64,000 nt of DNA from Mobula hypostoma (Eukaryota), in assembly GCF_963921235.1 (NCBI RefSeq), contig NC_086097.1, forward strand, positions 4,092,001 through 4,156,000. Reading direction: 5' to 3'. Shown here in pieces: positions 2,601-58,193 of this stretch (position 1 is the stretch's first letter; every line of letters begins with the position of its first letter). Made by a program: the position numbers and the translations under genes. Below the pieces are notes generated by a model. That model ran no database searches. It saw nothing but the letters and a program-made list of their open reading frames with translations, and was not told where the DNA came from.

Positions 2601-5600
2601 CCATAAGACATAGGAGCAGAATTAGGCCATCTGGCCCATAGAGCCTGCTCCGCCATTCAATCACAGCCTACCATTTTTTTTTACCTCCTCCTCAACCTCA
2701 GTTCCCGGCCTTTTCCCTGTAACCTTTGATACCATGTCCAATCAAGAACCTATCAAGCTCTGCCTTAAGTATACCCAATGGCCTGGCCTGCACAGCTGCA
2801 CATGGCAACAAATTCCACAAATTCACCACCCTTTGGCAAAAGAAATTTCTCTGCATCTCTGTTTTGAAAGGGCACCCCTCTATCCTGAGGCTGAGACCTC
2901 TTGTCCTTGACTCGCCCACCATGGGAAACATCCTTCCCACATCTACTCTGTCTAGGCCTTTCAAAATTTGAAAAGTTTCAATGAGATCACCCCTCATCCT
3001 TCTGAATTTAGGCAAGTACAGACCCAGAGCCATCAAATGTTCCTTGTATGATCATCCTTTCATTCCTGGAATCATCCTTGTGAAGCTTCTCTGGACCCAC
3101 TCCAATGTCAGTACACTTTTTCGAAGATGAGGGGCCCAAAACTGTTCACAATACTCAAGTTGAGGCCTCACCAGTGCCTTATAAAGCCTCAGCATTACAT
3201 CCTTGCTCTTGTATTCTAGATCTCCTGAAATGAATGCTAACATTGTATTTGCCTTCCACACCACTGACTCAATCTGCAAATCAACCTTTAGGGTGTTCTG
3301 CACAAAGACTCCCAAGTCCCTTTGCATCTCAGATTATTGGATTTTCTCCCTGTTTAGAAAATAGTCTGCACATTTACTTCTACTACTACAGTGCATGACC
3401 ATGCATTTTCCAACATTGTATTTCAATTGCCACTTTCTTGCTCATTCTTCTAATCTGTCTAAGTCCTTCTGCATCTTACCTGTTTCCTCAGTACTACTTG
3501 CCCCTCCACCAATCTTTGTATCATCTGCAAACTTAGCAACAAGGCCATCTATTCCACCATCTATTCCATCATCTAAATCATTTATATACTGCATAAAAAG
3601 AAGTAGTTCCAATACTGACCCCTGCGGAACTCCACTAGTCACTGGCAGCCAACCAGAAAAGAATCCTTTTATTCCCACTTGCTGCTTCCTACAAATCAGA
3701 CAATGCTCTAACCGTGTTAGTAACTTTCCTGTAATACCGTGGGCTCTTAACTTGGTAAGCAGCCTCATGTGTGGCATCTTGTCAAAGGCCTTCTGAAAGT
3801 CCAAATACACAACATCCACTGCATCCCCTTTATCTATCCTACTTGTAATCCCCTCAAAGAATTCTAACAGGTTTGTTAGGCAAGATTTTCCCTTAAGGAA
3901 ACCATGCTGACTTTGTCCCATCTTGTCCTATGATACCAAATATTCCATAACCTCATCCTTAACAACTGAGTCCAACACCTTCCCAACAACTGAGGTCAGG
4001 CTAACTGGTCTATAATTTCCTTTCTGCTGCCTTCCTCCTTTCTTAAAGAGTGGAGTGACATTTGCAATTTTCCAGTCCTCTGGCACCATGCCAGAGTCCA
4101 ATAATTTTTGAAAGATCATTTCTAATGCCACCACAATCTCTACCGCCATCTCTTTCAGAACCCTAGGGTGCTTAAGGTAAAAGAACCATTAGAAACCAGT
4201 TCATCCGGTTCAGGTGACCTATGTACCTTTAGGTCTTTTTAGCTTTCTGAGCACCTTCTCCCTTGTAACAGTAACTGCACTCACTTCTCTTCTTTCACAC
4301 ACTACAACATCAGGCATACTTCTAGCATCTTCCACAGTGAAGATTGATGCAAAATGCCAGAGTCCAATGATTTTTGAAAGATCATTACTAATAATTCCAC
4401 AATCTCTACCGCTACCTCTTTCAGAACCCTAAGGTGCAGTTCATCTGGTCCAGATCACTTATGAGTAACTGCACTCACTTCTCTTTCCTCATACCCTTCA
4501 ACACCTGGCGCACTGCTGGTATCTTCCACAGTGAAGACTGATACAAAATACTCATTTAGTTCATCAGCCATCTCCTTGACGCCCGTTATTATTTCTCCTG
4601 CCTCATTTTCTAGCGGTCCTTTATTTACTCTCATTTCTCTTTTATTTTTAACATACTTGAAAAAACTTTTATTATCCACTTTGATATTATTTTCTAGCTT
4701 GTTTTCATATTTCATTGTTTCCTTTCTGATGATTTTTTGCTCTCTGTAGGTTTTTGAAAACTTCCCAATCCTCTATCTTCCCACTAATTTTTGCTTTGCT
4801 GTACACCCTTTCTTTTGCTTGTACAATAGCTTTGACTTCCCTTGTCACCATGGTTGTACTGTTTTACCATTTGAGTATTTCTTCATTTTTGGAATATACA
4901 TGTCCTGCACCTTCCTTATTTTTCCCAGAAAAGCACGTCGTTGCTGCTCTGCGGATATTCCTGCCAGCAGCTCCTTCCAATCTACTTTGGCCAACTCCTT
5001 TCTCATACCAATGTAATTTCCCTTACTCCACTGAAATACTGCTACATCAGACTTTACTTTGCCCCTATCAAATTTCAAGTTGAACTCAATCTCATTGTGA
5101 TCACTGGTTTCTAATGGTTCTTTTACCTTAAGCTCCCTAATCGCCCCCTGTTCATTACATGACACCCATTCCAGTATAGCTGATCCCCTAGTAGGCTCAA
5201 CAACAAACTGCTCTAAAAAGCTATCTCTTAGGCATTCAACAAACTCACTCTCTTGGGATCCATTACCAACCTGATTTTCCCGTTCAACCTGCATGTTAAA
5301 ATCTCCCTTGACTACCATAATGTTGCCCTTTTGACACGCCTTTTCTATTTCCTGTTGTAATCCGTGGTCCACCTCCCAGACACTGTTGGGAGGCCTGTAT
5401 ATAACTGCCATCAATGTCCTTTTACCCTTGCAGTTTCTTAACTCAAACCACAAGGATTCAACATCTTCTGATCCTATGTCACATCTTTCTACTGATTTGT
5501 TGCCATTTATTACCAGTATAGCTACACCACACCCTCTGCCTACCTTCCTATCCCTCCAATTTAACGTGTAACCTTGGACGTTCAGCTCCCAATTACAACC

Positions 5601-6912: not shown

Positions 6913-6914
6913 CT

Positions 6915-9049
6915 GCATTTGCCTTCCTCACCACAGACTCAACCTGCAAATAACCTTTAGGGAATCCTGGACAAGGACTCCCTCATCCCTTTGCACCTCA
7001 AATTTTTGTATTTTCTCTCCATTTAGAAAACAGTCAACCCTTTCCTTTCTTCTACCAAAGTGCATGACCATAAACTTCTGACACTGTATTCCATCTGCCA
7101 TTTCTTTGCCCATTCTCCTAATCTGTCTGTCCTTCTATAGCCTCTCTTCTTCCTCAAAACTACCTGCCCCTCTACCTATCATTATGTTGTATGCAAACTT
7201 TGCAGCAAAGCCATCAATTCCATTATCTAAATCATTGACATATAACATAAAAGAATTGCTCCCAACATAGACCCTTGTGGAACACCACTAGTCACCAGCA
7301 GCCAGTCAAAAAAGGCTCTCTTTATTCCCACCCTTTGCCTCCTGCCAATCAGCCACTGCTTCATCCATGCTAGAATCTTTCCTATAATACCGTGGGCTTG
7401 TAGTTTGTTAAGCAGCCTCATGTGTAGCACCTTGTCAAAGGCCTTCTGAAAATCCAAGTACATAACGTGAACCGATTCGCCTTCGTCTATCCTGCTTGTT
7501 CCTTCTGCAAAGAATTCCAACAAATTTGTCAGGCAAGATATTCCCTTGAGGAAACCATGCTGACTATGGCCTATTTTATCATGTGCCTCCAAGTACCCTG
7601 AGCCCTTATCCTTAATAATCGACTCTTAACATCTTTCCAGATACTGAGGTCAGGCTAACTGGCCTATAGATTGTTTTCTTCTGCCTCTCTCCTTTCTTTT
7701 CAGTCTTTCCAGTCTTCTGGCACCATGCCAGAGTCTAATGATTTTATGAAAGATCATTACTAATGCCTCCACAATTTCTTCAGCCACCTTCTGCAGAGCA
7801 AAGGAGTGTACACAATCTGGTCCAAGTGACTTATCTACCTTCAGACCTTTCAGTTTCCCAAGAACCTTCTCCCAAGTAATGGTAACTTTACACACTTTAT
7901 GACACCTGACACCAGGAACTTTCACTATACTGCTAGTGCCTTCCACATTGAGGATGGATGCTTTCTTCTGCCTTTCTCCTTTCTTGAATAGTGGAGTGAC
8001 ATTTGCAATTTTCCAGTCTTTCGGAACCATTCCAGAATCTAGTGATTCTTGAAACATCATTACTCAGGCCTCCATGATCTCTTCAGCCTCCTCTTTCAGA
8101 ACTTTGGGGTGTCCACCATCTGATTCAGATGACTTATCTACCTTCAGACCTCTTAGTTTTCTAAGAACCTTCTCTGTGGCTATGTCAACTTCACATACAT
8201 CCTGCTCCCTGACACCTGGAACTTACCCCTTACCTGACCTCTGTGACTTTCCTCTGTTAGGTTATCCCCCTGACAGTATCCAAAGTGATACACCTGTTGT
8301 TGAGGGGGATGGCCCCCACGCGTACTCTGCACTGGCTCCTTAACCCCTTTCCCTTCCTGTCACCCATTTCTTGTGTTACATGCACCTTGCATGTAACTAA
8401 CTCTCTGTGTGTCCTATCTATTACCCCTTCAGCTTCCTGAATGATCCAGAGTTCATCCATTTCCAGCACCAACTCCTTAATATGGTTTGTTAGGAGCTGC
8501 AGCTGAATGTGCTTCTCGCAGCTGTAGTCATCAGGGACACTGGAGGTCTCCCTACCTTCCCACATCCTGCAAGAGGAGCACTTCGCTATCCGACCTGTCA
8601 TCCCTACTGTCCTAGCTGAGTGGATATAAAGAAGAGAAGGAAAAATCTTGAGCTTTTTTCCCCTTTGCTTTCTCTGAATGAAGCCTCTCTTCGCTGAAGC
8701 CTCGAAGAGCTAAAGCCTTAAGATCACCACTCTATGTCCACTCAGACGGCAGCTACTGCACTTGTCCCTGTCTTCCTTTAATTTGCTTTTACTAATCAAT
8801 CCCAAATGCCAATTGCTCGCTGGTCAAAGCTCTATTATGCTGCCACGACCTGCTCCTGCCTTTTATCCTCCAGCAGTGGACCTGGTTGAAGCCCCTCCTC
8901 TCCAAACTCCCGATGTCTGGATTGGCCATTGGTCAAAGTTCAATTACTCAGCCACAAACTGCTCCTGCCTTTTCTTCTTGGCAGTTGACCTAGTTGAAGT
9001 CCGCTCCTCTCCAAATTTCCGATGTCTGGATTGGCCGCTGAGCAAAGCT
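6915..9049 (-). mobile_element. CR1 5' part: RT, duplicated linker, large deletion, ORF1 N-terminus, 5' UTR
   Basis: RT ORFs 7227-7592 and 7650-8060; ORF1 N-terminus CSSCRMWE at 8257-8601. Confidence 0.85.
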
Positions 9050-11357: not shown

Positions 11358-12104
11358 CACAGATGAAAAGAGTTTGGCAAAAAAATCTGAAAGGCACATG
11401 AGGACAAACTTTTGTTTTGTGCAAGGTGAGTTGAAGGTTTGGAATTGCTCTTTTATTAGTTATTTAATTTCTTTTATTCTTAGTTTTATGGACATAGGAA
11501 TCCATCTGTGTTCTAAACTGTCTGGAGTAATAGTACATGCATGTTCAGCTGCAGCATTCGAAAGAGATCTGCATAAGGGTCTGAAAGGGAAAAAGATTGC
11601 AAGGTTATGGAAGAGAGGACGTGTGAATGGGACTTAATTTTTCTCAGATAAAAGCAATAATATTTCAGCAGTCTGCATGGCTACTTTCTATGCTGTAACA
11701 GTTGTGGTTAGATGCTTAGACCACTTGGAATGTTTTTGTACCTATGAAAATGTTTATGGTCCACTTGAAACCTGTAACAATTATCTTACCTGCTTCCTAA
11801 GTTGAAATAGGTTCATTTCCCAATTAAGTAGGACACTCATGTCATCTGTTGCATCACCCATTGCTTCCTTGGGATTTTTGCATTCTACTAATTTTTCTTC
11901 AATTTCCCTGAGGAGACACCCAATTAAAATCATATTAAATCCTGCAAAGCATGCTTGACTTAAGCTCTTATATGTCCTAATTATTTTTCTTAGTTTTATG
12001 GACATAGTAATCCATTAAGGCAGAAACTCTCTGCAAAAAAGATTAGGGTAGCCTTCCTTCTCCCTTCAACACTATAGTATACAAGAAGACAACAAAAGTG
12101 GTAG

Positions 12105-12389
12105 TTCAAGCAACACACATCAAAGTTGCTGGTGAATGCAGCAGGCCAGGCAGCATCTCTAGAAAGAGGTACAGTCGACGTCTCGGGCCGAGACCCTGCA
12201 TCAGGACTAACTGAAAGAGCCAAATCTCTTACTAGCTCTTCTTTCAGTTGGTCCTGACGAAGGGTCTCGGCCCGAAACGTCGACTGTACCTCTTCCTAGA
12301 GATGTTGCCTGGCCTGCTGCGTTCACCAGCAACTTTTATGTGTGTTGCTTGAAATTCCAGCATCTGCAGATTTCCTCGTGTTTGCGTTT
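12105..12389. mobile_element. Inverted pair of Penelope terminal-repeat fragments
   Basis: ~12105-12225 is the reverse complement of part of ~12235-12389; same family as 28371-28800. Confidence 0.85.
12245..12286 (+). ncRNA. Minimal hammerhead ribozyme motif (best-preserved sense copy)
   Basis: GTC-CTGACGA(12254-12260)-AGGGTCTCGGCCC-GAAAC-GTC(12279-12281)-GAC. Confidence 0.7.
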
Positions 12390-12589
12390 TAAAAAATATG
12401 GTAATTCCATTGTTGTTTTGGTCCCCTTTGCCCCTGGAATAAGACTTTCTTCTCTGCAACTCATCTGCAATGCAGTTGGCATATAACAACTGCTCATTCC
12501 ACAATATGAACTTTGGCACCTGGAATGTTGTAGTTCTCAAGGACAATATCAAAAGTAATAGACCTGAACATGGCTCCGTTATCACAGGC

Positions 12590-14475: not shown

Positions 14476-17400
14476 ATCCAGTTGCTGTGGTCCATGTGGG
14501 TCCCAACAATATAGGTAAAATGAGGAAAGAGATTCTGCTGAGGAAGTTTGAGCAGTTAGGGACTACATTAAAAAGGAGAACCAAAAAGGTGGTAATCTCT
14601 GGATTACTACTTTAGCCATGTGCAAATTGGTATTGGGTCAGGAAGCTTAGAGAGTTAAATGCGTGACTCAAGGATTGGTGTGGGAGAAGTGGGTTTGACT
14701 TCATGGGAAAATTAGCACCAGTATTGGGGAAGGGGGGAGCAGTACCAATGGGACGGGCTCCACCTGAACTGTGATGGGATCTGGATCCTACAAAATCACA
14801 TAATTAGGGCTGTGGACAAGGCTTTAAACTAAATAGTCGGGGGGTGATTTCAACAGATTGGAGAAATAAAGTAAAAAAGAAAAGTGTGGATAAAGATAAA
14901 GAAAAAGCAAAAGGTAAAAAAAGAGAAAAGTAAGAGTGGGGTGAAGAAAAGTTAAGTGCAAAAGAGTAAAAGCTTACAAGATTTTAAAAGCACAATGAGT
15001 GTAAATGCACTTTATTTGAATGCCTGTAGTATTCAAAACAAACTCAGTGAACTTGTGGGCACATATCAGTACAATGGGGTATGATTTAGTGGCCATTACA
15101 GAGATGTGGTTGCAGGGTGGGGAAGACTGGGAAGTAAATATCCAAGGATATCAGGTAATATGGAAGGATAGGCAGGACGGTAATGGAGGTTGGGTGGTGT
15201 TCTTAATTAAAGATGAAATCAGGGTGATGATGAGAGATGATATAGGATCTAAGGAGCAGAATATTGAATCCATCTGGGTAGAGATTAGGAATAGTAAAGG
15301 GAAAAAATCACTGTGGGAGTTGTTTGTAACATTACAGTGCCACAGGAAATAAACAAAGAAATATCTGAGGCACGTAAGAATGGAACAGCAGTTATCATGG
15401 GGGACTTTAACTTGCTCATAGCTTGAGAAAATCAAGTTGGTCGAGGTAGTCTTGAGGACTTCATAGAATACATCTGTCATCGCTCTCTCGGACATCATGT
15501 TACTGAACCTACAAGGGAATGTGCTACTTTAGATCTGGTCCTGTGCAACGAGACAGGTAAAATTAGTGATCTTGTAGTTAGGGATCCTCTTGGAAAGAGT
15601 GATCACAGTATGACTGAGTTTCTCATACAAATGAAAGGTGCAACAGTTTGATCTTAAACCAGTGAATTATGCCTAAACAATGGAGACTACAATGGGATGA
15701 GGGAGGATTTGGCTAGTGTAGACTGGGAACACAGACTATATGGTGGAATAGTTGTGGAACAGTGGAAGACTTTCAAAGAGATTTTTCACGGTGCTCAACA
15801 AAAGTTAAAAGCAGTTAAATGCTAGGACAGTGAGGGTGGGGAGAGCCAGCCTTGGATAACTAAGGAAATAAAAGAAGGCATCAAATTAAAAGTTGGTGTG
15901 TTGAAAGTCACCAAGAATAATGGGAAACTGGAAGATTGGGAAAACTTTAAAAAGCGACAAAGAGCCACTAAGCAAGCAATAAAGAAAGGGAAGCTAGATT
16001 ACAAAAATAAACCAGCACAAAATATAGAAACAGATAGTAAAAGTTTTTATAATTATATAAAGCGTAAAAGGGTGGCGAAAGTGAACATAGGTCCTTTGGA
16101 GGATGAGAAGGGATTGATATTAGGTAATGAGGAAATGGCAGAGACTTTGAATGACTTTTTTGTGTTGGTCTTCATGGTGGCAAACGTGTCTAACATGCCA
16201 AAGAGAGATGTTATGGTTGTGATGGGAGATGAGGGCCTCAAGACAATAGCTATCACTAAAGAGTAGTGCTGAGCAAACTTCTGGGCCTGAAGATAGACAA
16301 GTACCCTCATCATGATGGAATGCATCCCAGTGTACTGAATGAAATGGCAGCACTTACAGTAGAGGCTTTGGTGATAATTTACCAAAATCCTCTGGACTCT
16401 GGGCAGGTCCTAGCAGATTGGAAGACAGCGAATGTTATGCCACTGTTCAAAAAAGTAAGCTGGCAGAAGGCAGGCAACTATAAGTTAGTTAGTTTAACAT
16501 CTGTAGTTGGGAAAATGCTTGAAGCTAATTTAAAAAAGAAATAGTGAGGCATCTGGAAAGAAATGGATCCATCAGGTAGACACCTCATAGATTCAGCAAA
16601 GGCAGCTCCTGTTTGACAAACTTACTGGAGTTCTTTGAGGATATAAGAAACACAGTGGATAGAGGGGAACAGATGGACGTTATTTACTTGGATTTCTAGA
16701 AGGTGTTCGATAAGGCGCCACATAAAAAACTTATTCATAAGATAACGATGCATAGAGTTGGGGGGTGATGTATGAGCATGGATAGAGGATTGGTTAACTA
16801 ATAGAAAGCAGAGTTGGGATACATGGGTGTTTCTCTGGTTGGCAGACGGTGGTGAGCGGGGTGCTGCAGGGGTCGGTGCTGGGCCTGCAACTGTTCACGA
16901 TACATGTTAACGATCTGGAAGAGGGGACTGAGTGTAGTGTATCTAAATTTGCCGATGATACTAAATTGAGTGGAAAAGGAAATTGTGCAGAAGATATGGA
17001 GAGCTGGCATAGTGATAAAGATAGGTTCAGTGAGCGGGCAAGGGTCTGACAGATGGAGTACAATGTTGGTGAATGCGAGGTCACCCACTTTGGAAGGAAA
17101 AATGAAAGAGCAGATTACTTAAATGGTAAAATATTGCAGTATGCTGCTGGGCAGAGGGACTTGGGAGTGGTTGTGCATGAATCACACAAGGTTAGTTTGC
17201 AGGTGCAGCAGGCTATCAAGAAGGCAAATGGAATATTGTCCTTCATTGTGAGAGGGATTAAATTTAAGAGCAGGGCTGTTATGCTGCATCTGTAAATGGT
17301 ACTGGTGAGGCTGCACCTGGAGTACTGTGGGCAGTTCCGGTCTCCTTACTTGAGGAAAGATATACTGGTTTTGGAAGCAGTGCGGAGGAGGTTCCCCACA

Positions 17401-17878
17401 TTGGTTCCAAAGATGAGGGGGTTAGACTATGAAGAATGATTGAGTCTCTTGGGACTGTACTTGCTGGAATTCAGAAGAATGAGAGGAGATCTTATAGAAA
17501 CATATAAAATTACAAAAGGGACAGATAAGGTAGAGATAGGAAAGTTGTTTCTACTGGTAGGTGAGACTAGAACTAGAGGACATAGCCTCAAGATTTGGTG
17601 GTGTAGATTTAGGACAGGGATGAGGAGGAACTCCTTTTCCCAGAGAGTGTTGAATCTGTGGAATTCTCTGCCCAATGAAGCAGTGGAGGCTACCTCAGTA
17701 AATATATTTTAAGATAAGGTTAGATATATTTTTACATAGTAGGGGAATTAAGGGTTATGGGGAAATGGCAGGTACGTGGAGGTGGGTCCATGGCCAGATC
17801 AGCCCTGATCTTATTGAATGGTGGAGTAGGCTCTATGGGCCAGATGGCCTACTCCTGCTCCTATTTCTTATGTTCTTA
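14476..17878 (+). mobile_element. CR1 LINE from ORF1 C-terminus to 3' tail, degenerate
   Basis: VHVGPNNIG and DGLHLN esterase motifs, APE (AITEMWL), RT (KFADDTK), CTTATGTTCTTA tail. Confidence 0.9.
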
Positions 17879-17954
17879 AATACAATGTTGGAAAATGCAT
17901 GGTCATGCATTTGGTAGTAGAAATAAATGTGTGGTCTATTTTATAAATGAAGCG

Positions 17955-18152
17955 TGTACCGTATAGCCTACAGTATAATAAGGGACTACTTTATGTTTTA
18001 GTAACACGTCATTGAATGTGCTATTAGGCGCGTATTGATCTATAGGTGTGTGCCGAGTTCAGTTTCTGCCTGTAAAGAACCATGAACCTTAGTTCCCGTC
18101 TCCAGCATTTTTATTAATAGCATTATTGTGTAACCAGGCCACATACACAACA
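17955..18152 (+). repeat. 5' LTR (198 bp)
   Basis: TGTACCGTATAG...CATACACAACA. About 9 substitutions relative to 22188-22410 by manual alignment; lacks one 25-bp internal repeat unit. Confidence 0.95.
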
Positions 18153-18154
18153 AA

Positions 18155-18166
18155 TTGACGATGAGG
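18155..18166 (+). promoter_or_regulatory. Primer-binding site (degenerate)
   Basis: TTGACGATGAGG, 2 nt after the 5' LTR; two transitions from the TGGCGACGAGG PBS typical of Mag-like Gypsy elements. Confidence 0.7.
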
Positions 18167-18534
18167 GTAATGAACCTACATCGTATTGGAACGCCGTGTT
18201 TTAATTCATAATGACACTCGGAAGAAGAGCGCAAGGAACGAGCCAAGGAGTGGGAGAAGGAGGCAGAGCGAGGCCGCGAGTCTGAAAGGAAGCTGGAACA
18301 CAGCCAGGGTTGGGAACATCGGGAAACCAAGAGACACAGTCGGAGCCACAGCACATCCAGCTGAGACCACAGTCGGCGCTGACCCCCAGGGGCTGAAGGT
18401 CTGTCTGCCCCAGAAGGGAGATAAAAAGGAGTGACACACACATCTAGATGGAGTGTGCTCGTGGCGCTAGCAAAAAGGACATGTGAGTCAAAAAGAAAAC
18501 AAGGGGAGAACGGGGCTTAATTAACATAACAAAG

Positions 18535-18940
18535 ATGGCGATGATCGGAACCATTACAGCATTTGATAGTGGCATTGAAGACTGGGCAACTTACGTTGAC
18601 AGAGTGGAGTTATAGTGTGAGGCTAGCAGTGTTAATGATGGAAAGAAAGCCAGTGTCTCACTCAGTATTATGGGAGCAAAAACATAAACTGGCTGCTATG
18701 GAGCTTGTTAACCCCTGAAAAGCCAGTTGACAAAACATTCAAACAAATAGTAGACACTCTCCAACAGAGTTTAAACCCCAAACCACTGGTCATTGCTGAA
18801 AGATTTAAATTTCACAATTGGAATCAGAGCAAAAATGAAAACATTTCTGAATGTTGTGCTGAATTGTGCAAATTATCAGAATATTGTCAATTTGAAGCTG
18901 GTCTATCGGACGCATTGAGGGACAGGTTAGTGTGTGGCAT
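18535..18940 (+). pseudogene. Gypsy gag N-terminal part, disrupted
   Basis: MAMIGTITAFDSGIEDWATYVDRVEL* then ...PKPLVIAERFKFH...LRDRLVCGI, typical Mag-like gag motifs. Has an internal stop and frameshift. Confidence 0.85.
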
Positions 18941-19002
18941 TGTAACGGGGTCCTGAATTACCCCTATGAACTGTGCTTTTGAAAAGAGAGACATGTTGTT
19001 TT

Positions 19003-19039
<37 letters not shown>

Positions 19040-19100
19040 AAGACTAACTTTTGGACTGTCACTTTAAGGCACAAGAATAACTTTTGGATTTCTGCTGAGT

Positions 19101-19137
<37 letters not shown>

Positions 19138-19220
19138 AGAGGGAGCAAGAGAGAGAGAAGGAGAGGGAGCACCGAGCAGCTTGTAATTTGCTATGGTGAT
19201 CGAGGGCGGCGTTATTTGAT
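18941..19220 (+). mobile_element. Truncated LTR-like insertion from a second element, with (GA)n tracts
   Basis: Starts TGTAACGGGG exactly where gag similarity stops; contains (GA)n at ~19005-19036 and ~19082-19147; no matching CA end seen. Confidence 0.5.
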
Positions 19221-19649
19221 GCCCCACCTCCCCCTCGTACCCCATCCGTTATTTATTTATAAACACACATTCTTTTTCTCTCTCTCATTTTTCTCCTTGT
19301 CCCTCTCACTATACCCCTTGCCCATCCTCGGGGTTCCCCCCGCCTTTTCTTTCTCCCTAGGCCTCCTTTCCCATGATCCTCTCATATCCCTTTTGCCAAT
19401 CACCTGTCCAGCTCTTGGCTCCATCCCTCCCTCTCCTGTCTTCTCCCATCATTTCGGATCTCCCCCTCCCCCTCCCACTTTCAAATCTCTTACTAACTCT
19501 TCCGTCAGTTAGTCCTGACGAAGGGTCTTGGCTGAAACGTCGACTGCACCTCTTCCTATAGATGCTGCCTGGCCTGCTGCGTTCACCAGCAACTTTGATG
19601 TGTGTTGCTTGAAATTCCAGCATCTGCAGATTTCCTCGTATTTGCGTTT
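19221..19649 (+). mobile_element. Penelope-like element terminal repeat / 3' UTR with hammerhead motif
   Basis: Reverse-complement match to 28371-28800, beginning at the base after that element's stop codon. Confidence 0.9.
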
Positions 19650-19875
19650 TCTCACATACCTCTGAAACGAACTAAACTACTGCTAAAGGCTTACACAGGA
19701 CAGAAAGTGCATCCCAAAGGTAAAATTAAAGTGACAGTGACCTACGGAGACGAAACACAGCAGCTTAACCTCTATGTACTGAAAAACAGAGGACCACCGT
19801 TGCTGGGACGGGAATGGCTCAGGAAAATCCAGTTGGATTGGCACACCATCAAGGCACTAGATGTGTTAACAAAGG
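19650..19875 (+). pseudogene. Gypsy aspartyl protease C-terminal half
   Basis: [23 protein letters not shown]...[16 protein letters not shown], with the LLGRxWL retropepsin motif. The catalytic DTG half is missing upstream. Confidence 0.85.
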
Positions 19876-19895
19876 AGGGCAGCTTGGCAGGGAAG

Positions 19896-20553
19896 ATGTC
19901 CACAGCTCTTCTCTCACCCATTGTCGACTATTACAACGACGAGGAGGAGCTAGACATCATCGACAATGAGGATGAACGCAGTATCCGTGGCCGTGACTCA
20001 GATGAAGGTATAGAGGATGCAGGTGAGACAGATATTGCCAATAAGCAGGATGATGAAGACTACCTGGAAATAAAAGAGCAGATGTACCAGGAGAAATTGA
20101 CATCTCTCAAAATACAGCTACAGCAGTTACAGGAAGGCACTTTGCAGGAGTATCAGAAAAAGATGAAGAAACTAGATCAACAATACTGTATAAGAAAAGA
20201 ATATGAAATGCAGAGCTTTTTCTGCAACTGAAGACAGAACAAGTGGAAAGGAATTATATTAAACAGAAGAAAGCAGCAGTGAAGGAATTTGAAGATAAAA
20301 AGATTGAGTTAGAAGAAAAGAAAAAGATGATTGAGAATGAGAGGCTAATAATGGAAATCACAGGAGATTCTATGGAGGTAAAGTCAATAACAACTAGGAA
20401 ACTAAGGAGGAGACCTAATGACCCTGTTCCAATTACAGACAAAAGACAAAAACCTGCACCTGCGCAGTTAAATTACTTGTTCACAGATGAACAGATAATG
20501 GAAGACCTGCGAACTGTCAATAAGCTTAAATCTTCGAAAAGACCAACATCTTC
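19896..20553 (+). pseudogene. SUDS3: Processed SUDS3 (Sin3A-HDAC subunit SDS3) retrocopy, 5' part
   Basis: MSTALLSP...KEQMYQEKL...[24 protein letters not shown]...[19 protein letters not shown]...[13 protein letters not shown]...[24 protein letters not shown], matching recalled vertebrate SUDS3 with no introns. Has a ~5-bp insertion frameshift and TGA near 20185-20204, and an 8-codon deletion. Confidence 0.95.
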
Positions 20554-21504
20554 ATTCAAACAGAACAGCTTTCGCACAAGGTAAATCTGGAACCAATTGT
20601 TTCCTCCATTGAGAATTATTCACTTCATCCTTTGCAGGAAAGTTTCTTTTGCACGTACATATTTTGAATCCTCAGCCAATGTGTCTTGTTTTTCACAAAG
20701 AAGTTGGGAAACAGCATCAGAACAGAGGCGAATTCTGGCAACAAACTGTAAGGTTTATATTGTTGTATTTTCACACTTGTGCTGAATGTGCACCTGAAGG
20801 AATTCTCCCTCTTGAGCCAGACAGATAGCACTGCAGGTAATCCTTAATATCAGCAAAACTGTACTTTAACAGCAGCTTAAGAACAATGGAACGAACAACA
20901 GGATTTCGATCAACTGCTTCATCGAATGGTGAATGATTACTGATAAAGTACTGATCTTTCTGTGAGTTATTGGTTTGCCCTGACTTTTGAATAACTAGCA
21001 GAGACAGCAGATCACCAACCACTTCTTTGTTGGTGGCAAGTCATCTTTGAAGCAGACCATGGAAACCGAAGCTATGAAAAATGCGTCACACCTCTTGTGA
21101 AATATGACTAATTTTGCTGCAACTTCACTTATTTCTTCTGTTACTGCTGGTACATAATCATCATCTAGAGCAGTACGGCACAGTGGGCAGAGTTGTTGTC
21201 CTGATTCAAGCCACCGCTTTATACATTTTAAACAGTAAAAATGATCACATGGAAGCAGGATGGGATTGTTGAGTTCTCCTAAGCAAATTGTACATTCTTG
21301 CAGATCATACCTGAAGAACAGACATCCTGCACTATTTTTACAGTCCCTGAGGATCTGAACCACAGCCCGAAAGAGCCCTCAGGATCTCACATCAGAGTTA
21401 CTGTTCAAACTCTTTGCAAGTTGACCAGCGTAGAATACAACCTTGTTCTCCAATTTATCATGGATTTCTTTAACTCCCAAAATGATGTGTTCCACAGAAA
21501 GTGA
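20554..21504 (-). pseudogene. RNF213: Intronless RNF213 (mysterin) cDNA fragment spanning the RING domain
   Basis: LSVEHIILG...NSDVRS; CTICLGELNNPILLPCDHFYCLKC...CPLC (C3HC4 RING); VCFKDDLPP; SPFDEAVDRNPVVRSIVLKLLLKYSF; then, in another frame, LQFVARIRLC...[12 protein letters not shown]. All match recalled RNF213. Several stops and frameshifts. Confidence 0.9.
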
Positions 21505-21910
21505 CAGCATCTCCGTTTTCTCCTGAACATCTTCCCAGCACTCCTGTTGAAACACTAGCTCAAAGATATGAAGCACGAATAGAAGATGGAAAGTTATATT
21601 ATGATAAGAGATGGTATCATAAAGGTCAGGCTATCTATTTAAAATCTAAGGAGAATACAAAGATTGACTGTGTAATTAGCTCAGTTGGAACAAATGAGAT
21701 ATGGGTAAGGAAGACAAGTGATAGCACAAAGATGCGTGTATATCTAGGACAGCTGCACAGAGGAGTCTTCATTACACGGAGGCGATCTGCTGCCTAGAAC
21801 TCTTAGCAAGTTGGAGGCGCACATCTTCTTAACTCCCTATGCTCAGAGGTCAACTTTTCATGACTTTTATATGGAAATCTGTATTAAAACAAACAAGTTT
21901 ATTAACAGTC
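21505..21910 (+). pseudogene. SUDS3: Processed SUDS3 retrocopy, 3' part plus partial 3' UTR
   Basis: [13 protein letters not shown]...[18 protein letters not shown]...[20 protein letters not shown]...RRRSAA* (stop ends 21797), then ~110 nt of putative UTR with ATTAAA at 21883 and no poly(A). Confidence 0.93.
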
Positions 21911-21962
21911 ATTACCCAGAGAGGCCGAGAAGATCCCCCCCCCAAGAGACTTGAGTTATAAA
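21911..21962 (+). pseudogene. Extreme C-terminus of Gypsy integrase
   Basis: YPERPRRSPP(K)RLEL*, resembling the RYPxRxRxPPxRL ending of Gypsy pol; slippage in a C-run. Confidence 0.6.
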
Positions 21963-21991
21963 TGGGTCTTAGACCAAATGTAAAAAAAAGA

Positions 21992-22077
21992 CTTGTTATA
22001 ATTTGATATTATTACATAACTTTGTTATAATTTGGTATTATTACGCTACTTTGTTATAATTTGATATTATTAAGCTA
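21992..22077 (+). repeat. Three ~29-bp tandem repeats in the retrotransposon 3' untranslated region
   Basis: Unit CTTTGTTATAATTTG(A/G)TATTATTA...A seen three times. Confidence 0.85.
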
Positions 22078-22174
22078 TTAAGTAAACAAACAGTAGGCGT
22101 TTGTATGTTAAGGGTAAACATATTTGTTTAGCATAGTGCCCCAATAAAAAAAACAGTTGATACACCATTAAAAT

Positions 22175-22187
22175 AAAAGGGGAGGAG
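22175..22187 (+). promoter_or_regulatory. Polypurine tract
   Basis: AAAAGGGGAGGAG directly abutting the 3' LTR. Confidence 0.9.
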
Positions 22188-22410
22188 TGTACCGTATAGC
22201 CTACAGTATAATAAGGGACTACTTTATGTTTTAGTAACACGTCGTTGAATGCGCTATTAGGCGCATATTGAGCATGCGCTATTAGGCGCGTATTGATCTG
22301 TAGGTGTGTGCCGAGTTCAGTTTCTGCCAGTAAAGAACCATGAACCTTAGCTGCCGTCTCCAGCGTTTTTATTATTAGCATTGTTGTGTAACCAGGCCAC
22401 ATACACAACA
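22188..22410 (+). repeat. 3' LTR (223 bp)
   Basis: Direct copy of the 5' LTR with an extra 25-bp unit GCGCTATTAGGCGCATATTGAGCAT. Confidence 0.95.
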
Positions 22411-23576
22411 AAGAGAAAATCCAAAAATCTGAGATGCAAAGGGACTTGGGAGTCCTTGTGCAGAACACCCTAAAAGTTGATTTGCGGGTTGAGTCAATGG
22501 TGAGGAAGGTAAATACAATGTTAGTATTCATTCCAAGAGATCTGGAATACAAGAGCAAGGATGTGATGCTGAGGCTTTATAAGGCACTGGTGAGGCCTCA
22601 CCTTGAGTATTGTGAACAGTTTTGGGCTCCTCATCTGAGAAAAGATATGCTGGCATTGGAAAGGGTTCAGAGGAGGTTCACAAGGATGGTTCCAGGAATG
22701 AAAGGGTTATTATACGAGGAATGTTTGTTAGCTCTAGATCTGTACTCACTGGAATTTAGAAGGATGGGGTGGGGTGGGAGGACCTCACTGAAACCTTTCA
22801 AATGTTGAAAGGCCTAGGCCCTAGATAGTGTAGATGTGGAAAGGATGTTTCCCATGGTAGGGGAGTCCAGGACAAGAGGACACAGCCTCAAGATAGAGGA
22901 GAATCCATTTAGAACAGAGATGTAAAGAAGTTTCTTTTGCCAGAAGGTGGTGAATATGTGGAATTTATTATCAAGGGCACCTGTGGAGGCCAGGTTGTTG
23001 GGTGTATTTACAGAAGAGCTTGATAGGTTCTTCATTGGACACATCATCAAAGGTTACAGGGAGAAGTCCGGGGAGTGAGGCTGTGGAGGGGAGAAAAGAA
23101 TCAGCCAGGTCTGGATGGCTGAGCAGACTCAATGAGCTAATTGGTCTAATTCTGCTGCTCTGTCTTATGCTCTTATCCTTTATTGATCCCAAAGGAAATT
23201 ACAGGGTCACAGTAGCATTGTGCACAGATAAACAAATATTCAAATATTAGAAGAGAAGTAAGAAAGAATAAAAAAACAAATTACCTCAAATAGTCTAACA
23301 GGAGGGTGTCATCACTTCCCCGGCTATAGGTTGACTCATTACAGAGCCTAATGGATGAGGGTAAGAATGACCTTGTATTGCACTCTTTGGAACAGCGCAG
23401 TTGTCTTAGTCTGTTACTAAAAAGTGCTCCTCTGATCAGCCCAGGTGTTATGCAGAGAATGTGAATCATTGTCCGGAATTGACACTTGTGAAATCAAAAA
23501 AACATGATCCTCACAGTGCTGGCAGAGCAGACTTGATGGGCCAAATGGCTTAATTTTGCTCCTAAGTTTTATAGTC

Positions 23577-24769: not shown

Positions 24770-26730
24770 GCGAAACAAGATAAGAGCACATGGTATTACA
24801 GAAAAATACTAGCATGGACAGAAGATTTGCTGATTGGTTGATTGGCAGAAGGCAAAGAATTGGAATAAAGGGGACCTTTTCTGGTTGGCTAGTAGTGTTC
24901 TTTGGGGGTAGGTGTTGCGTCCACTAATTTTCACATTATATTTTAATGATATGGATGATGGAATTGATGGGTTTGTGGCCAGGTTTGCAGATGATACAAA
25001 GACAGGTGAAGAGGCAGGTAAATTTGAGGAAGGGCTTGAACATATCAGAAGAATGAGTTAAAGAGGTAATAGATGGAATTCAGTCTAGGCAAGTGTATGG
25101 TCATGCAGTTTAGTAGAAGGATAAAGACATAGACTATTTTCTAAATGGGGGAGAAAACTGAAAATTCAGAGCTGCAAAGGGACTTGGGAGTCCTGGTGCA
25201 GGATTTCCTAAAGGTTAACTTGTAGGGTGAATCAGTAGGAAGGAAGGCATATGCAATGTTAGCATTTGTTCTGAGAGGACAAGAATATAAAAGCAAGGAT
25301 GCAATGCTGAGGCTTTATAAGGCTTTGGCCAGACTGTATTTTGGATATTTTGAGCAGTTTTAGACCTCGCATCGAAGAAAAATGTGCTGGCATTGGAGAA
25401 AGTGTAGACGATTGTCAAAGATTGCAGAGAAACATTGATAGGATGCAGAAGTGGGCTGAGAAGTGGCAGATGGAGTTCAACCCGGAGAAGTGTGAGTTGG
25501 TACACTTTGGAAGGACAAACTCCAAGGCAGAGTACAAAGTAAATGGCAGGATACTTGGTAGTGTGGAGGAGCAGAGGGATCTGGGGGTACACGTCCACAG
25601 ATCCCTGAAAGTTGCCTCACAGGTGGATAGGGTAGTTAAGAAAGCTTATGGTGTGTTAGCTTTCATAAGTTGAGGGATAGAGTTTAAGAGTTGCGATGTA
25701 ATGACGCAGCTCTATAAAACTCTGGTTAGGCCACACTTGGAGTACTATGTCCAGTTCTGGTCGCCTCACTATAGAAAGGATGTGGAAGCATTGGAAAGGG
25801 TACAGAGAAGATTTACCAGGATGCTGCCTGGTTTCGAGAATATGCATTATGATCAGAGATTAAGGGAGCTAGGGCTTTACTCTTTGGAGAGAAGGAGGGT
25901 GAGAGGAGACATGATAGAGGTGTACAAGATAATAAGAGGAATAGGTAGAGTGGATAGCCAGCGCCTCTTCCCCAGGGCACCACTGCTCAATACAAGAGGA
26001 CATGGCTTTAAGGTGAGGGATGGGAAGTTCAAGGGGGATATTAGTGGACGGTTTTTTACTCAGAGAGCGGTTGGTGCGTGGAATGCACTGCCTGAGTCAG
26101 TGGTGGAGGCAGATACACTAGTGAAGTTTAAGAGACTACTGGACAGGTATATCGTGAAATTTAAGTTGGGGGCTTATATGGGAGGCAGGGTTTAAGGGTC
26201 GGCACAACATTGTGGGCCGAAGGGCCTGTACTGTGTTGTACTATTCCATGTTCTATGTTCTATGTTCTATGATCCAAAGGATATTCACAAGAGTGACCCC
26301 GAGAATTAAAGGATTAATGCGTGAGGAGCTTTTGATGGCTCTGGTTCTGTATTGACTGGAGTTTAGATGAAGTGGGGGGGGGAGACCTTATTGAAACCTA
26401 TCAAATATTGAAAGGCTTAGGTAGAGTGGATTTGGAGAGAATATTTCCTACAGTGGAAGAGTCTAGGAACAGAGAAATAGCCTCAGAATTGATGTGCATC
26501 CCTTTAGAACAGAGATGAGGAGAGATTTCTTTCGCAAGAGAGTGGTTAATTACACGTGATTAACCAGAAATGAATTCATTGCCATCGACAGCTGTAGAGG
26601 CCAAATCATTGGGTGTATTTAAAGTGGGCATTGATAGGTTCTTGGTTAGTCAGGGCATCAAAGGTCATGGGGAGAAGGCAGGAAAATGGGGTTGAGAGAG
26701 ATAATGAATCAGCCTTGATCAAATCGCGGA
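24770..26730 (+). mobile_element. CR1 3' part containing a younger CR1 3' fragment (~25400-26270)
   Basis: Inner ORFs 25341-25673 and 25701-26195 with (TTCTATG)n tail; the outer element resumes at ~26271. Confidence 0.85.
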
Positions 26731-28370: not shown

Positions 28371-31300
28371 AAACAACAGGAATTCTGCAGATGCTGGAAA
28401 TTCAAGCAACATACATCAAAGTTGCTGGTGAACGCAGCAGGCCAAGCAGCATCTATAGGAAGAGGCGCAGTCGACGTTTCAGGCCGAGACCCTTCGTCAG
28501 GACTAACTGAAGGAAGAGTGAGTAAGGGATTTGAAAGCTGGAGGGGGAGGGGGAGATGCAAAATGATAGGAGAAGACAGGAGGGGGAGGGATAGAGCCGA
28601 GAGCTGGACAGGTGATAGGCAAAAGGGGATACGAGAGGATCATGGGACAGGAGGCCTAGGGAGAAAGACGGGGGGGGGGGGTTGACCCAGAGGATGGGCA
28701 AGAGGTATATTCAGAGGGACAGAGGGAGAAAAAGGAGAGTGAGAGAAAGAATGTGTGCATAAAAATGAGTAACAGCTGGGGTACGAGGGGGAGGTGGGGC
28801 CTAGCGGAAGTTAGAGAAGTCAATGTTCATGCCATCAGGTTGGAGGCTACCCAGACGGAATATAAGGTGTTGTTCCTCCAACCTGAGTGTGGCCTCATCT
28901 TTACAGTAGAGGAGGCCGTGGATAGACATGTCAGAATGGGAATGGGATGTGGAATTAAAATGTGTGGCCACTGGGAGATCCTGCTTTCTCTGGCGGACAG
29001 AGCGTAGATGTTCAGCAAAGCGGTCTCCCAGTCTGCGTCGGGTCTCACCAATATATAAAAGGCCACATCGGGAGCACCGGACGCAGTATATCACCCCAGT
29101 CGACTCACAGGTGAAGTGATGCCTCACCTGGAAGGACTGTTTGGGGCCCTGAATGGTGGTGAGGGAGGAAGTGTAAGGGCATGTGTAGCACTTGTTCCGC
29201 TTACACGGATAAGTGCCAGGAGGGAGATCAGTGGGGAGGGATGGGGGGGACGAATGGACAAGGGAGTTGTGTAGGGAGCGATCCCTGCGGAATGCAGAGA
29301 GAGGGGGGGAGGGAAAGATGTGCTTAGTGGTGGGATCCCGTTGGAGGTGGCGGAAGTTACGGAGAATAATATGTTGGACCCGGAGGCTGGTGGGGTGGTA
29401 GGTGAGGACCAGGGGAACCCTATTCCTAGTGGGGTGGTGGGAGGATGGAGTGAGAGCAGATGTACGTGAAATGGAGGAGATGCGTTTAAGAGCAGAGTTG
29501 ATAGTGGAGGAAGGGAAGCCCCTTTCTTTAAAAAATGAAGACATCTCCCTCGTCCTAGAATGAAAAGCCTCATCCTGAGAGCAGATGCGGCGGAGACGGA
29601 GGAATTGCGAGAAGGGGATGGCGTTTTTGCAAGAGACAGGGTGAGAAGAGGAATAGTCCAGATAGCTGTGAGAGTCAGTAGGCTTATAGTAGATATCAGT
29701 GGATAAGCTGTCTCCAGAGACAGAGACAGAAAGATCTAGAAAGGGGAGGGAGGTGTCGGAAATAGACCAGGTAAACTTGAGGGCAGGGTGAAAGTTGGAG
29801 GCAAAGTTAATAAAGTCAACGAGTTCTGCATGCGTGCAGGAAGCAGCGCCAATGCAGTCGTCGATATAGCGAAGGAAAAGTGGGGGACAGATACCAGAAT
29901 AGGCACGGAACATAGATTGTTCCACAAACCCAACAAAAAGGCAGGCATAGCTAGGACCCATACGGGTGCCCATAGCTACACCTTTAGTTTGGAGGAAATG
30001 GGAGGAGCAAAAGGAGAAATTATTAAGAGTAAGGACTAATTCCACTAGACGGAGCAGAGTGGTGGTAGAGGGGAACTGATTAGGTCTGGAATCCAAAAAG
30101 AAGCGTAGAGCTTTGAGACCTTCCTGATGGGGGATGGAAGTATATAAGGACTGGATATCCATGGTGAAAATAAAGCGGTGGGGGCCAGGGAACTTAAAAT
30201 CATCGAAAAGTTTAAGAGCGTGAGAAGTGTCACGAACATAGGTCGGAAGGGATTGAACAAGGGGTGATAAAACAGTGTCGAGGTATGCAGAAACGAGTTT
30301 GGTGGGCAGGAGCAAGCTGAGACAATAGGTCGGCCAGGACAGGCAGGTTTGTGGATCTTGGGTAGGAGGTAGAAACGGGAAGTGCGGGGTGTGGGAACTA
30401 TAAGGTTGGTAGCAGTGGATGGGAGATCCCCTGAGCGGATAAAGTCATTGATAGTGTGGGAGACAATGGCCTGGTGCTCCTTAGTGGGGTCACGATCGAG
30501 GGGTAAATAAGAGGAGGTATCCGCGAGTTGTCGCTGTGCCTCGGCAAGGTAGAGGTCAGTACGCCAGACTACAACAGCACCCCCTTTATCAGCGGGTTTA
30601 ATAATAATGTTAGGATTAGTGCGGAGGGAGTGGAGAGCAGAGCGTTCCGAAGGAGTGAGGTTGGAATGGGAACAAGGTGCGGTGAAGTCGAGACGGTTGA
30701 TGTCCCGTCGGCAGTTAGCAATAAAGAGATCCAGAGCAGGCAGAAGACCAGAGCGGGGTGTCCATGAAGAAGAGGAGGGTTGAAGATGGGAGAAGGGGTC
30801 ATCGGTGGGGGTGGAAGAGTCCTTGCCGAAGAAGTAGGCTCGGAGACGGAGACGGCGGAAGAAAAGTTCCACATCGTGGCGAACACGGAACTCGCTGAGG
30901 TGTGGGCGAAGGGGGACAAAGGTGAGGCCCTTACTGAGGACAGAGCGTTCTGCCTCCGACAGTTGAAGGTCGGAGGGGATGGTAAAGACCCGGCACGGAT
31001 GAGAGCTGGGATCAGAGGGGGGAGGGGGGAGGCTGGGGGTGTCAATGGAGAGGGGAGGGTTGGGGTGAGAGGAAGATGGAGCCTCTGAGGACCCAGGAGT
31101 TGACGGTGGGATCTGAGGAAGATGGGGCTGCGGAGTGGTGGTGGGGGAAGGGGAGACGGGAGTCACAACAGCAGCACATAAAGACCCGGCCTGGAGTTCA
31201 AGGCTGGAGTCGCAGTTGGTGGTTGTGCAATCACTTCGAATGTGTCCATGGTCGTTGCTGGAGTCCGGGTTTTGAATATGTCCTGAGGTGTTGGAGCCGC

Positions 31301-57190: not shown

Positions 57191-57402
57191 CATCAAAGTT
57201 GCTGGTGAATGCAGCAGGCCAGGCAGCATCTCTAGGAAGAGGTGCAGTTGACGTTTCAGGCCGACGAAGTCCTGACGAAGGGTCTTGGCCTGAAACGTCG
57301 ACTGCACCTCTTCCTAGAGATGCTGCCTGGCCTGCTGCATTCACCAGCAACTTTGATGTGTGTTGCTTGAATTTCCAGCATCTGCAGAATTCCTGTTATT
57401 TG
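57191..57402. mobile_element. Inverted pair of Penelope terminal repeats with 14-bp TSD
   Basis: TSD CCCCTTAAAGATTA at 57177-57190 and 57403-57416; sense hammerhead motif at 57268-57304; inserted in a decayed CR1. Confidence 0.9.
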
Positions 57403-58193
57403 CCCCTTAAAGATTAGCTGTCATTTATGTGTGAGGCTACAGTAGATGTGTAAGGTTTTAAATTAATACTTCTCGTTTTTACTTAGGATGGAAAAGATCA
57501 TGGTAGCTAAGTGATTGAGATAAAATGCAATAAAGGTTAACCAGAGTGATTCCTACGATGGGGGAATTATTCAGATTGGAAAAAATTAAGCAGGCAGTCT
57601 GTGAACGAGAGGGTATGGCAGGGTAGATCTTTCCCCCACCCCCTGCAATTACTGTGTCTAGAACAAGTGGTTAAAATGAAGAGGTGCTCTTTCAAGAGTG
57701 AATTTCATAACCCAGAGCATAGGGCATCTTTGGAATGATCTAGTCACAAGGACTGGGGTAAATTCAAGACTGTGATTAATAGATTTTTGCATATTAGAAT
57801 TACTGTTCCCACAACCTTTAGACTCACTTTTAAGGAATCTTCATCTCATATTCTCAATATTTATTGTTTATTTATTTATTATTATTATTGTTGTTATTTT
57901 TATTATTCTCTTTTGTACGTGCAGTTTGTTGTCATTTGCATATTGGTTGTTTATCTGTCCCGTTGGGTGCAGTCTTTCATTGATTCTATCGTTTCCTGGA
58001 TTTACTGAGTATGCCCAGCGGAAAATGAATTTCAGGGTTTTATATGGTGTCAGATATGTACTTTGATAATTAATTTACTTTGAACTTTGTGTATAGAAAA
58101 GTGATGCTGAAGAATATTTCCTCTCATTTTTTATTTTCTGCTGTCTGTCTCATTCTGTTTGAAGGAGTAAGTTTAATTGTTTTTTTTTTGCAG

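Follow-up and report, generated by a model that had tools for sequence, protein, structure and literature searches.

A stretch of 64,000 nucleotides from the ray Mobula hypostoma (contig NC_086097.1, positions 4,092,001 to 4,156,000 of the forward strand; in the following this whole stretch is called the window, and all positions are counted from its first letter) carries at 17950-22415 a long terminal repeat (LTR) element of 4,466 bp, which is inserted in a CR1-like long interspersed nuclear element (LINE) with a 5-bp target duplication. Most of its pol gene is missing and has been replaced by an intronless copy of the mRNA of the host gene SUDS3, into which an antisense cDNA fragment of a second host gene, RNF213, is nested. 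As outlined below, the locus is probably best understood as a dead, non-autonomous Ty3/Gypsy-type element made by LTR-mediated retroposition.

Insertion site and ends of the element

Both LTRs lie on the forward strand, run from TGT to ACA and form a direct repeat, the 5' copy measuring 198 bp (17955-18152) and the 3' copy 223 bp (22188-22410). They are enclosed by the two copies of the target duplication, AAGCG at 17950-17954 and AAGAG at 22411-22415, which agree at four of five positions, and the 3' LTR is directly adjoined by the polypurine tract AAAATAAAAGGGGAGGAG (22170-22187). Since the two flanks of the element are directly contiguous in all three paralogous LINE copies of the window that span the site, the short repeat marks a real insertion with a 5-bp target duplication and not a chance similarity. 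The LTRs, target duplication and polypurine tract claimed in the first-pass annotation of this DNA, which was made from the letters alone, were thereby borne out.

Within the 198 bp that can be compared the LTR pair shows nine differences (six transitions and three transversions; Kimura two-parameter distance ~0.046), and one further difference is a 25-bp tandem duplication found in the 3' copy only (22249-22296). With a vertebrate neutral rate of 0.5-1e-9 per site per year the divergence of the LTRs suggests that the element was inserted some tens of millions of years ago.

The host LINE is one of two CR1-like copies standing head to tail (17100-17880 and 17881-23180), the first of which ends at 17880 (...cttatgttcttaa) while the second, starting 5'-truncated at 17881, hosts the LTR insertion. 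More CR1-like copies are located at 3175-3423, 6914-7090, 25077-25721 and 39570-39743. Part of the stretch is contained in 20 of the 24 listed sequencing runs (best share 0.41), with no RNA run among them, and the metagenome collection, the only public collection scanned, gave no match for an exact 23-mer of the LTR.

Loss of the pol core

The element is assigned to the Ty3/Gypsy type via its polyprotein relatives, as its own remains comprise a gag N-terminus, half of the protease and an integrase tail and include no reverse transcriptase from which a tree could be calculated. In its closest full-length relative, P0028, the protease (residues 290-378), reverse transcriptase (505-645), RNase H (708-839) and integrase (951-1149) are predicted in an order which, together with the families RT_RNaseH_2 and Integrase_H2C2, reads as the Ty3/Gypsy pattern. 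On such polyproteins, residues 1 to ~138 (gag) and ~322-396 (protease) could be mapped with E-values between 1e-11 and 1e-39. The C-terminal half of the protease occupies 19647-19865 of the window, where homology stops at ...DWHTIKAL (19859) or at the following V (19865); this remnant is 83% identical to the gag-protease of a close relative, P0165, from which it diverges after IKAL.

Across the relatives, homology stops at polyprotein residue ~392-399 (19859-19871) and resumes for the last 14-16 residues (21913-21958), so that ~912 residues are absent from the stretch that should connect the protease with the 16 terminal codons of the integrase. These codons and their stop (21913-21961) read YPERPRR, a frameshift in a C9 run (21935-21943), PPKRLEL and stop, and they match the conserved polyprotein C-terminus RRYPER.R.PPKRLEL*. 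P0028 ends in RRYPERTRAPPKRLEL*, and similar ends were seen in most of the 31 polyproteins inspected. Searching the 64 kb with 120 gag-containing proteins, of which 36 exceed 1000 amino acids, at E<=1e-5 yielded matches to the gag and protease regions only and none for the reverse transcriptase, RNase H or integrase core. An integrase tail of ~50 nt, the lack of the reverse transcriptase/RNase H/integrase core and a cDNA which replaces pol instead of being added to it had all been proposed from the letters alone, and each of these proposals held. Downstream of the integrase tail follows the 3' untranslated region (UTR) of the element (21962-22187), which comprises three 29-bp tandem repeats (21993-22077) before it ends with the polypurine tract.

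The SUDS3 cargo

The gap left by pol starts with a junction zone that includes a short SUDS3 5'UTR (19866-19895). About 25-30 nt of this UTR precede the ATG, and their translation, (K)EGSLAGK, matches EGGLAGKM, which the Chiloscyllium SDS3 model P0132 shows in its read-through sequence ahead of the start. The coding sequence itself lies on the forward strand in two parts. Part 1 begins with the Met, reaches ...KRP and includes another 9 nt from the following exon (19896-20554; PDB 4zqa_A, E 4.6e-18), while part 2 runs from ASP(S/F)SPEH... to the stop codon TAG (21507-21797; PDB 7sxi_A, E 4.8e-41), followed by a presumed 3'UTR stub of ~105 nt (21798-21907), the first 9 nt of which are shared with the read-through end of the SDS3-like model P0244 (AALNS vs AA*NS*). 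Both pieces are 84-91% identical to the SDS3 proteins of Mobula, Pristis and Hemitrygon, and for part 1 alone the identity to ray SDS3 amounts to 84-90%. The copy is unbroken over at least six positions at which exons are skipped or introns retained in the parental gene models of other species; being continuous across at least six inferred exon junctions it therefore represents a spliced cDNA. No A-run is present at the 3' end of the cargo, where ...AAGTTTATTAACA is directly followed by integrase codons.

The SUDS3 copy is dead: its frame is shifted by 5 inserted nucleotides near 20187, a stop codon stands at 20204-20206, and 24 nt encoding ELKENLIA have been lost between two Glu-Leu (EL) codon pairs. 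Among 12 open reading frames (ORFs) submitted to Pfam, the Sds3 family scored 24.4 bits, just under the cut-off of 25.4 bits. Thus, the first-pass description of an intronless SUDS3 from ATG to stop plus UTR, without poly(A), is right with regard to the missing introns, the two ends and the missing A-run, but it overlooked that the copy is split by RNF213 and damaged by the frameshift, the stop and the deletion.

The reading frame of the protease enters SUDS3 directly at 19896. The protease remnant is joined with the SUDS3 5'UTR and the 97 leading SUDS3 codons in a single open frame of 210 codons (19599-20231); by accident, such an in-frame fusion has a chance of one in three. Neither this chimeric ORF nor any protease-SUDS3 fusion protein occurred among the matches of two protein searches. 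In the metagenome collection four loci (L001-L004) resembled the chimeric ORF with 48-73% identity over parts of it only, three of them within the SUDS3 part, and none spans both parts.

The antisense RNF213 fragment

Between the two SUDS3 parts the reverse strand carries at 20566-21510 a cDNA fragment of RNF213 encoding ~327 residues including the RING domain (21378-20995), which was recognised by PDB, Pfam and tblastn searches. RNF213 chains of the PDB match with E-values of 6.9e-32 and 4.3e-16, RING families were the sole clear Pfam match among the 12 ORFs, and full-length fish-type RNF213 representatives cover 21510-20566 in tblastn. The fragment measures 945 nt, is colinear with the protein without intron-sized gaps and contains frameshifts and stops of its own. 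A retained SUDS3 intron was considered for this piece and rejected, since ~327 RNF213 residues align with it colinearly and do so on the opposite strand.

At the junction with SUDS3 part 1, an 11-nt filler (20555-20565) encodes, together with the next 10 nt, the heptapeptide FKQNSFR; the filler does not match the residues after YLIRK[LIV] in five RNF213 representatives. At the other border SUDS3 restarts at 21507 with ASPFSPEH, that is, with the first codon of an exon as delimited by the models P0121, P0122 and P0124, and the RNF213 insert therefore begins at a former exon-exon junction. The first three codons (9 nt) of this exon are present on both sides of the insert, reading TSS...ASP in the window and ASP...ASP in P0446, a model from Mobula birostris. 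Consequently, the earlier statement that pol is replaced by SUDS3 plus RNF213 has to be corrected: RNF213 is no parallel replacement of pol but an antisense insert nested in SUDS3.

Related SDS3-like copies in rays

At least ten RefSeq models named 'SDS3-like' were found on different chromosomes, originating from five loci of Mobula hypostoma, three of M. birostris and two of Hypanus sabinus (XP_062911214.1, XP_062914480.1, XP_062911948.1, XP_062913587.1, XP_062910978.1, XP_072100482.1/XP_072100483.1, XP_072094239.1, XP_072098599.1, XP_059800869.1 and XP_059812296.1). The 8-residue deletion is shared by the window and all nine models that cover the site. A P-to-T change in PITDKR is present in seven of seven sequences covering its position (the window and six models) and an S-to-G change in YHKGQ in six of six (the window and five models). 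All three changes are absent from the four elasmobranch parental models that cover the sites and from three bony-fish SDS3 proteins. In a maximum-likelihood tree, from which P0121, P0122 and P0130 were left out as short or duplicate isoforms, the ten retrocopy rows occupy one side of a branch with a support of 95/92 and radiate in a star-like manner, the end branch of the window (0.098) being typical of the retrocopy set. The age of the insertion and the spread of this family are of the same order within the wide error of nine substitutions.

One of the models carries the SUDS3/RNF213 junction itself. XP_072100482.1 of M. birostris (P0446, isoform X1) reads KRPASPFKQNSFR|ASPSSPEH and thus contains the heptapeptide that in the window is encoded by the filler and the first 10 nt of antisense RNF213 (20555-20575), and its annotated 'intron' corresponds to window 20576-21506, i.e. 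to the 931-nt antisense RNF213 fragment. The heptapeptide occurs in one of the 446 proteins compared. The composite SUDS3-RNF213 cargo was therefore copied as a unit, a pattern which repeated retroposition of the parental SUDS3 mRNA cannot produce.

Two further models deserve mention. The N-terminal extension of P0244 is a LINE reverse transcriptase tail, and P0125 reads the 11-residue out-of-frame peptide of the window. P0125 probably has the window's stop mutation and would be either an orthologue or a re-copied dead paralogue of the window copy. The SDS3-like gene models P0244, P0446 and P0125 are probably pseudogenes stitched together from repeats.

Leader, gag and repeat block

The leader (18153-18534) contains an ORF of 49 codons at 18215-18364 which is rich in Glu, Arg and Lys (EEERKERAKEWEKEAERGRESERK...) and has no Pfam match; it could be a native leader or an additional captured fragment. 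It is followed by the ~138 N-terminal residues of gag (18535-18944, one frameshift near 18684), for which tblastn gave 55-69% identity to K02A2.6-like or Gypsy polyproteins with E-values down to 1e-39. A 105-residue ORF overlapping this region (18639-18956) matched 202 proteins at E<=1e-3, many of them polyproteins of 1,300 residues, and the source names of these relatives include 'K02A2.6-like' and 'Gypsy retrotransposon integrase-like'. Among the 12 ORFs Pfam returned no match for the gag or protease pieces.

A repeat block of 702 bp (18945-19646) stands between gag and protease and consists of (AG)n microsatellites and a ~430-bp repeat (19221-19650) resembling a short interspersed nuclear element (SINE). 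The block takes the place of ~550 nt or ~180 residues and has cost the element the C-terminus of gag, the CCHC knuckle and the catalytic half of the protease, so that the first-pass claim of gag and protease is correct as to the presence of both remnants but not as to their integrity. A protease-like match at 19608-19646 was rejected, as it falls in the SINE tail common to other copies.

Copies of the SINE-like repeat are located at 28378-28800, 58663-59094, 12099-12390 and 57190-57403, and it forms inverted pairs twice, around 58885 and 12218. By tblastn the same repeat was found exonised in the Hemitrygon akajei SDS3 model P0241 (residues ~37-83). Furthermore, at 19099-19311 an (AG)n stretch followed by a TC-rich stretch makes up a long hairpin. 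Rfam searches over 17800-22500 gave only sub-threshold matches, located on the GA/TC hairpin and on the leader; against plant microRNA families the hairpin reached 24-30 bits with gathering scores of 64-85, and these matches are a chance effect of composition.

Discussion

We infer the template switches, their order and the spread of the other copies as LTR elements as follows. The reverse transcriptase would have started at the 3' end of the RNA of an autonomous element, left this template once the 16 terminal codons of the integrase had been copied, and continued on a spliced SUDS3 mRNA, entering it ~105 nt past the stop codon. From a point ~25-30 nt upstream of the ATG it would have returned to the element RNA, immediately behind the protease region, so that host cDNA of ~1.1 kb, continuing the protease frame, took the place of ~2.7 kb of pol. 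The antisense RNF213 piece may have entered in the same or an early round of reverse transcription: the enzyme would have stalled exactly at the SUDS3 exon-exon junction, copied RNF213 first-strand cDNA, which would account for the antisense orientation, appended 11 nt and returned to SUDS3 at a point 9 nt downstream, giving rise to the 9-nt duplication. The 24-nt deletion between the two EL pairs has the appearance of a comparable slippage product. Finally, the composite, equipped with both LTRs and the polypurine tract, would have been copied once more and integrated into the LINE, where it acquired its own LTR pair and the 5-bp target duplication.

Several observations weigh against this scheme. 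The switches are read from the anatomy of the element and not from microhomology at the junctions, which is the hallmark of template switching. No TGG follows the 5' LTR at the place where a primer-binding site would be expected, the sequence from 18153 onwards reading AATTGACGATGAGGG..., and the window holds no tRNA gene for comparison. The antisense orientation of RNF213 needs an unusual template, either a cDNA or copying during plus-strand synthesis, and the 9-nt duplication around the insert fits a DNA-level insertion equally well. The outer thirds of the RNF213 fragment (21379-21510 upstream and 20566-20770 downstream) match fish-type RNF213 representatives only, and PDB searches with them returned no RNF213 match. 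When the N-terminal extensions of P0244 and P0127 were aligned with the protease tail, 473 and 890 of 1000 shuffles, respectively, scored as high, and the comparison therefore provides no positive evidence that other copies share the same protease junction. Furthermore, a hexamer repeated at both borders of the cargo, which is treated below, could be the target duplication of a retrocopy that was inserted separately.

With respect to mobility, the dispersed relatives, the shared derived characters and the one shared SUDS3/RNF213 junction fit the earlier proposal that the element could have been mobilised in trans. The accompanying statement that all cis signals were kept holds for both LTRs and the polypurine tract but is doubtful for the primer-binding site, and half of the gag-protease region has been replaced by repeats.

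The hexamer TTAACA (19866-19871 and 21902-21907) is the starting point of an alternative which we consider unlikely, according to which a pol-less LTR element received an SDS3-like retrocopy that had been made and spread by other machinery, such as that of CR1-type LINEs; TTAACA would then be a 6-bp target duplication and the LTR element a mere bystander. The first-pass annotation had denied any target duplication around SUDS3, and to this extent the repeat qualifies it, but a shared 6-mer was observed in 1289 of 20000 comparable random window pairs and is thus expected by chance in 6.4% of them. The repeat may be such a chance event, it may represent microhomology, or it may have been duplicated when a retrocopy was inserted into an element already devoid of pol, and its left copy may belong to the SUDS3 5'UTR itself (Leu-Thr-Lys-Glu-Gly vs the Chiloscyllium read-through). 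In favour of this alternative, in the available part of one study batoid genomes are described as dominated by CR1/L2-type LINEs (10.64898/2026.10.27.761883), such LINEs fill the window, and a 2026 preprint, as far as its accessible text goes, ascribes retrocopies outside the mammals to CR1/Tx1. Besides, parts of the LTR element were seen beside no other copy of the family in the N-terminal extensions examined, those of P0244 and P0127. However, the 3' end of the cargo shows neither poly(A) nor a LINE tail, the insertion would have had to strike exactly the junction of the protease/integrase-tail deletion, and the cargo lies in sense orientation and in frame with the protease. Less probable still is a rearrangement after integration, be it ectopic recombination, gene conversion or end-joining between a Gypsy copy and a nearby SDS3-like pseudogene, or a chimera of the assembly. 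The region is indeed rich in repeats and microsatellites, and the filled gap between gag and protease reveals that this copy did undergo rearrangement at the DNA level; yet the 64 kb contain no other SUDS3, RNF213 or Gypsy sequence, both cargo borders preserve the coding frame and the sense orientation, and LTRs, polypurine tract and target duplication form a coherent set. The recurrence of the SUDS3/RNF213 junction in the independent assembly of another species moreover speaks against an assembly artefact for that part.

For the RNF213 step alone a serious alternative, though the less likely one, is that the fragment was a separate DNA-level insertion into a genomic master copy, either through target-primed reverse transcription or because a cDNA fragment was captured when a double-strand break was repaired. 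This possibility concerns that step only and is compatible with the origin of the SUDS3 part by LTR-mediated retroposition. The 9-nt (three-codon) duplication flanking the insert, its antisense orientation and the 11-nt filler at the end that is 3' in the sense of RNF213 all suit such an event. On the other hand, the insertion point coincides with the very beginning of a former SUDS3 exon, a position for which a genomic cDNA copy offers no reason; given 11 junctions in ~1 kb, the coincidence is expected in a few per cent of cases by a rough estimate. Nor does the insert possess poly(A) or a recognisable LINE tail, and the 5-nt repeats at its borders, expected by chance in 44% of cases, are not significant on their own.

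LTR-mediated retroposition of this kind has been described by Tan et al. (2016, Genome Res 26:1663, PMC5131818). According to the part of that paper available to us, the reverse transcriptase switches from element RNA to host mRNA and back, whereby part of the ORFs is replaced; multi-gene chimeras occur, switch sites lie near exon-exon junctions, and copies present at several sites share differences from the parent, which was read as re-mobilisation of non-autonomous elements. The retrocopies presented there (CG17604_r and CG4799_CG11924_r of Drosophila, 'Super' of mouse) likewise consist of an intronless cDNA between discontinuous parts of one LTR element, with partly replaced ORFs, no poly(A), both LTRs and more than one parental gene. 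Such retrocopies are recognised in the accessible text by an intronless cDNA that has parts of one and the same LTR element on either side, the element itself lacking more than 20 bp in between, and here the corresponding gap amounts to ~912 residues. Further marks are the absence of L1 hallmarks at the cargo (poly(A), target duplication, endonuclease site) and microsimilarity of mRNA and element at the switch points; of the L1 hallmarks, poly(A) is lacking here, while TTAACA stands at both borders. In contrast to the cases in the available part of that paper, the present host is a cartilaginous fish, a group outside its sample; the second cargo is antisense and nested in the first, an orientation for which no passage was found there; and the family appears to be larger (at least ten annotated relatives in three species) and older (LTRs ~4.5% diverged). 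As LTR-mediated retroposition, multi-gene chimeras and re-mobilisation have already been published (Tan et al. 2016), the locus constitutes a well-preserved further case. A literature search revealed no description of a well-preserved LTR-mediated retrocopy in cartilaginous fishes, and well-preserved cases from vertebrates that combine both LTRs with a target duplication and a family that can be traced are rare.

Like the processed pseudogenes made by LINEs, the SUDS3 cargo is an intronless copy of a spliced mRNA at a new locus. It differs from them in the absence of poly(A), in the truncation of both UTRs and in being embedded in sense orientation in one LTR element, and the only candidate for a target duplication of its own is the 6-mer that has a 6.4% probability by chance. 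Maize Bs1 and certain LTR elements of rice (Elrouby and Bureau; Wang et al. 2006, as cited in Tan et al. 2016) reportedly are non-autonomous as well and captured fragments of host genes. They resemble the present element in that several host gene pieces replace pol and several copies exist; unlike these plant elements, it resides in a vertebrate, and the coding sequence it carries is almost complete and continues the protease frame. A comparable process is said to underlie the transduction of v-onc genes by acutely transforming retroviruses, as put forward by Goodrich and Duesberg 1990 and others: there, too, a cellular mRNA replaces viral genes by template switching, and the product is replication-defective and dependent on a helper. 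Oncogene capture usually starts from a read-through transcript at the integration site. Unlike those viruses, the element described here has neither env nor an infectious cycle, and its stop, frameshift and split coding sequence give no sign of selection on the cargo.

For the genomes of batoids the finding may have wider consequences. Quite possibly, although we hold this tentatively, the chimeric Gypsy-SUDS3-RNF213(antisense) unit arose from a single multi-switch capture, was mobilised in trans many times and was the vehicle that multiplied SUDS3 in these genomes. It would be a long shot to assume in addition that the LTRs of the many copies drive transcripts which serve as a source of RNA antisense to the RING region of RNF213. 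The start of the RNF213 insert at an exon-exon junction and the re-copied 9 nt would add a vertebrate case of template switching near exon junctions. For annotation, many of the RefSeq 'SDS3-like' genes of Mobula and Hypanus are copies of one disabled composite and should be marked as artefacts, and at least one RefSeq model hides the 931-nt antisense RNF213 fragment as an 'intron'. SUDS3 has been ranked among the five most retrocopied genes of cartilaginous fishes (10.64898/2026.06.26.734816); the available part of this preprint considers LINE machinery, germline expression and selection when discussing its retrocopy lists and contains neither 'template switch' nor 'chimeric', and SDS3 is absent from the accessible text of a 2026 preprint on manta and devil ray genomes. 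If the multiplication of SUDS3 was indeed due to such a vehicle, its ranking would reflect hitch-hiking on a transposon and not germline expression with selective retention, as opposed to the explanation given in the available part of the former preprint, and other odd genes at the top of the retrocopy list (MIPOL1, SDF2L1, SLU7 and ZNF276) deserve the same check.

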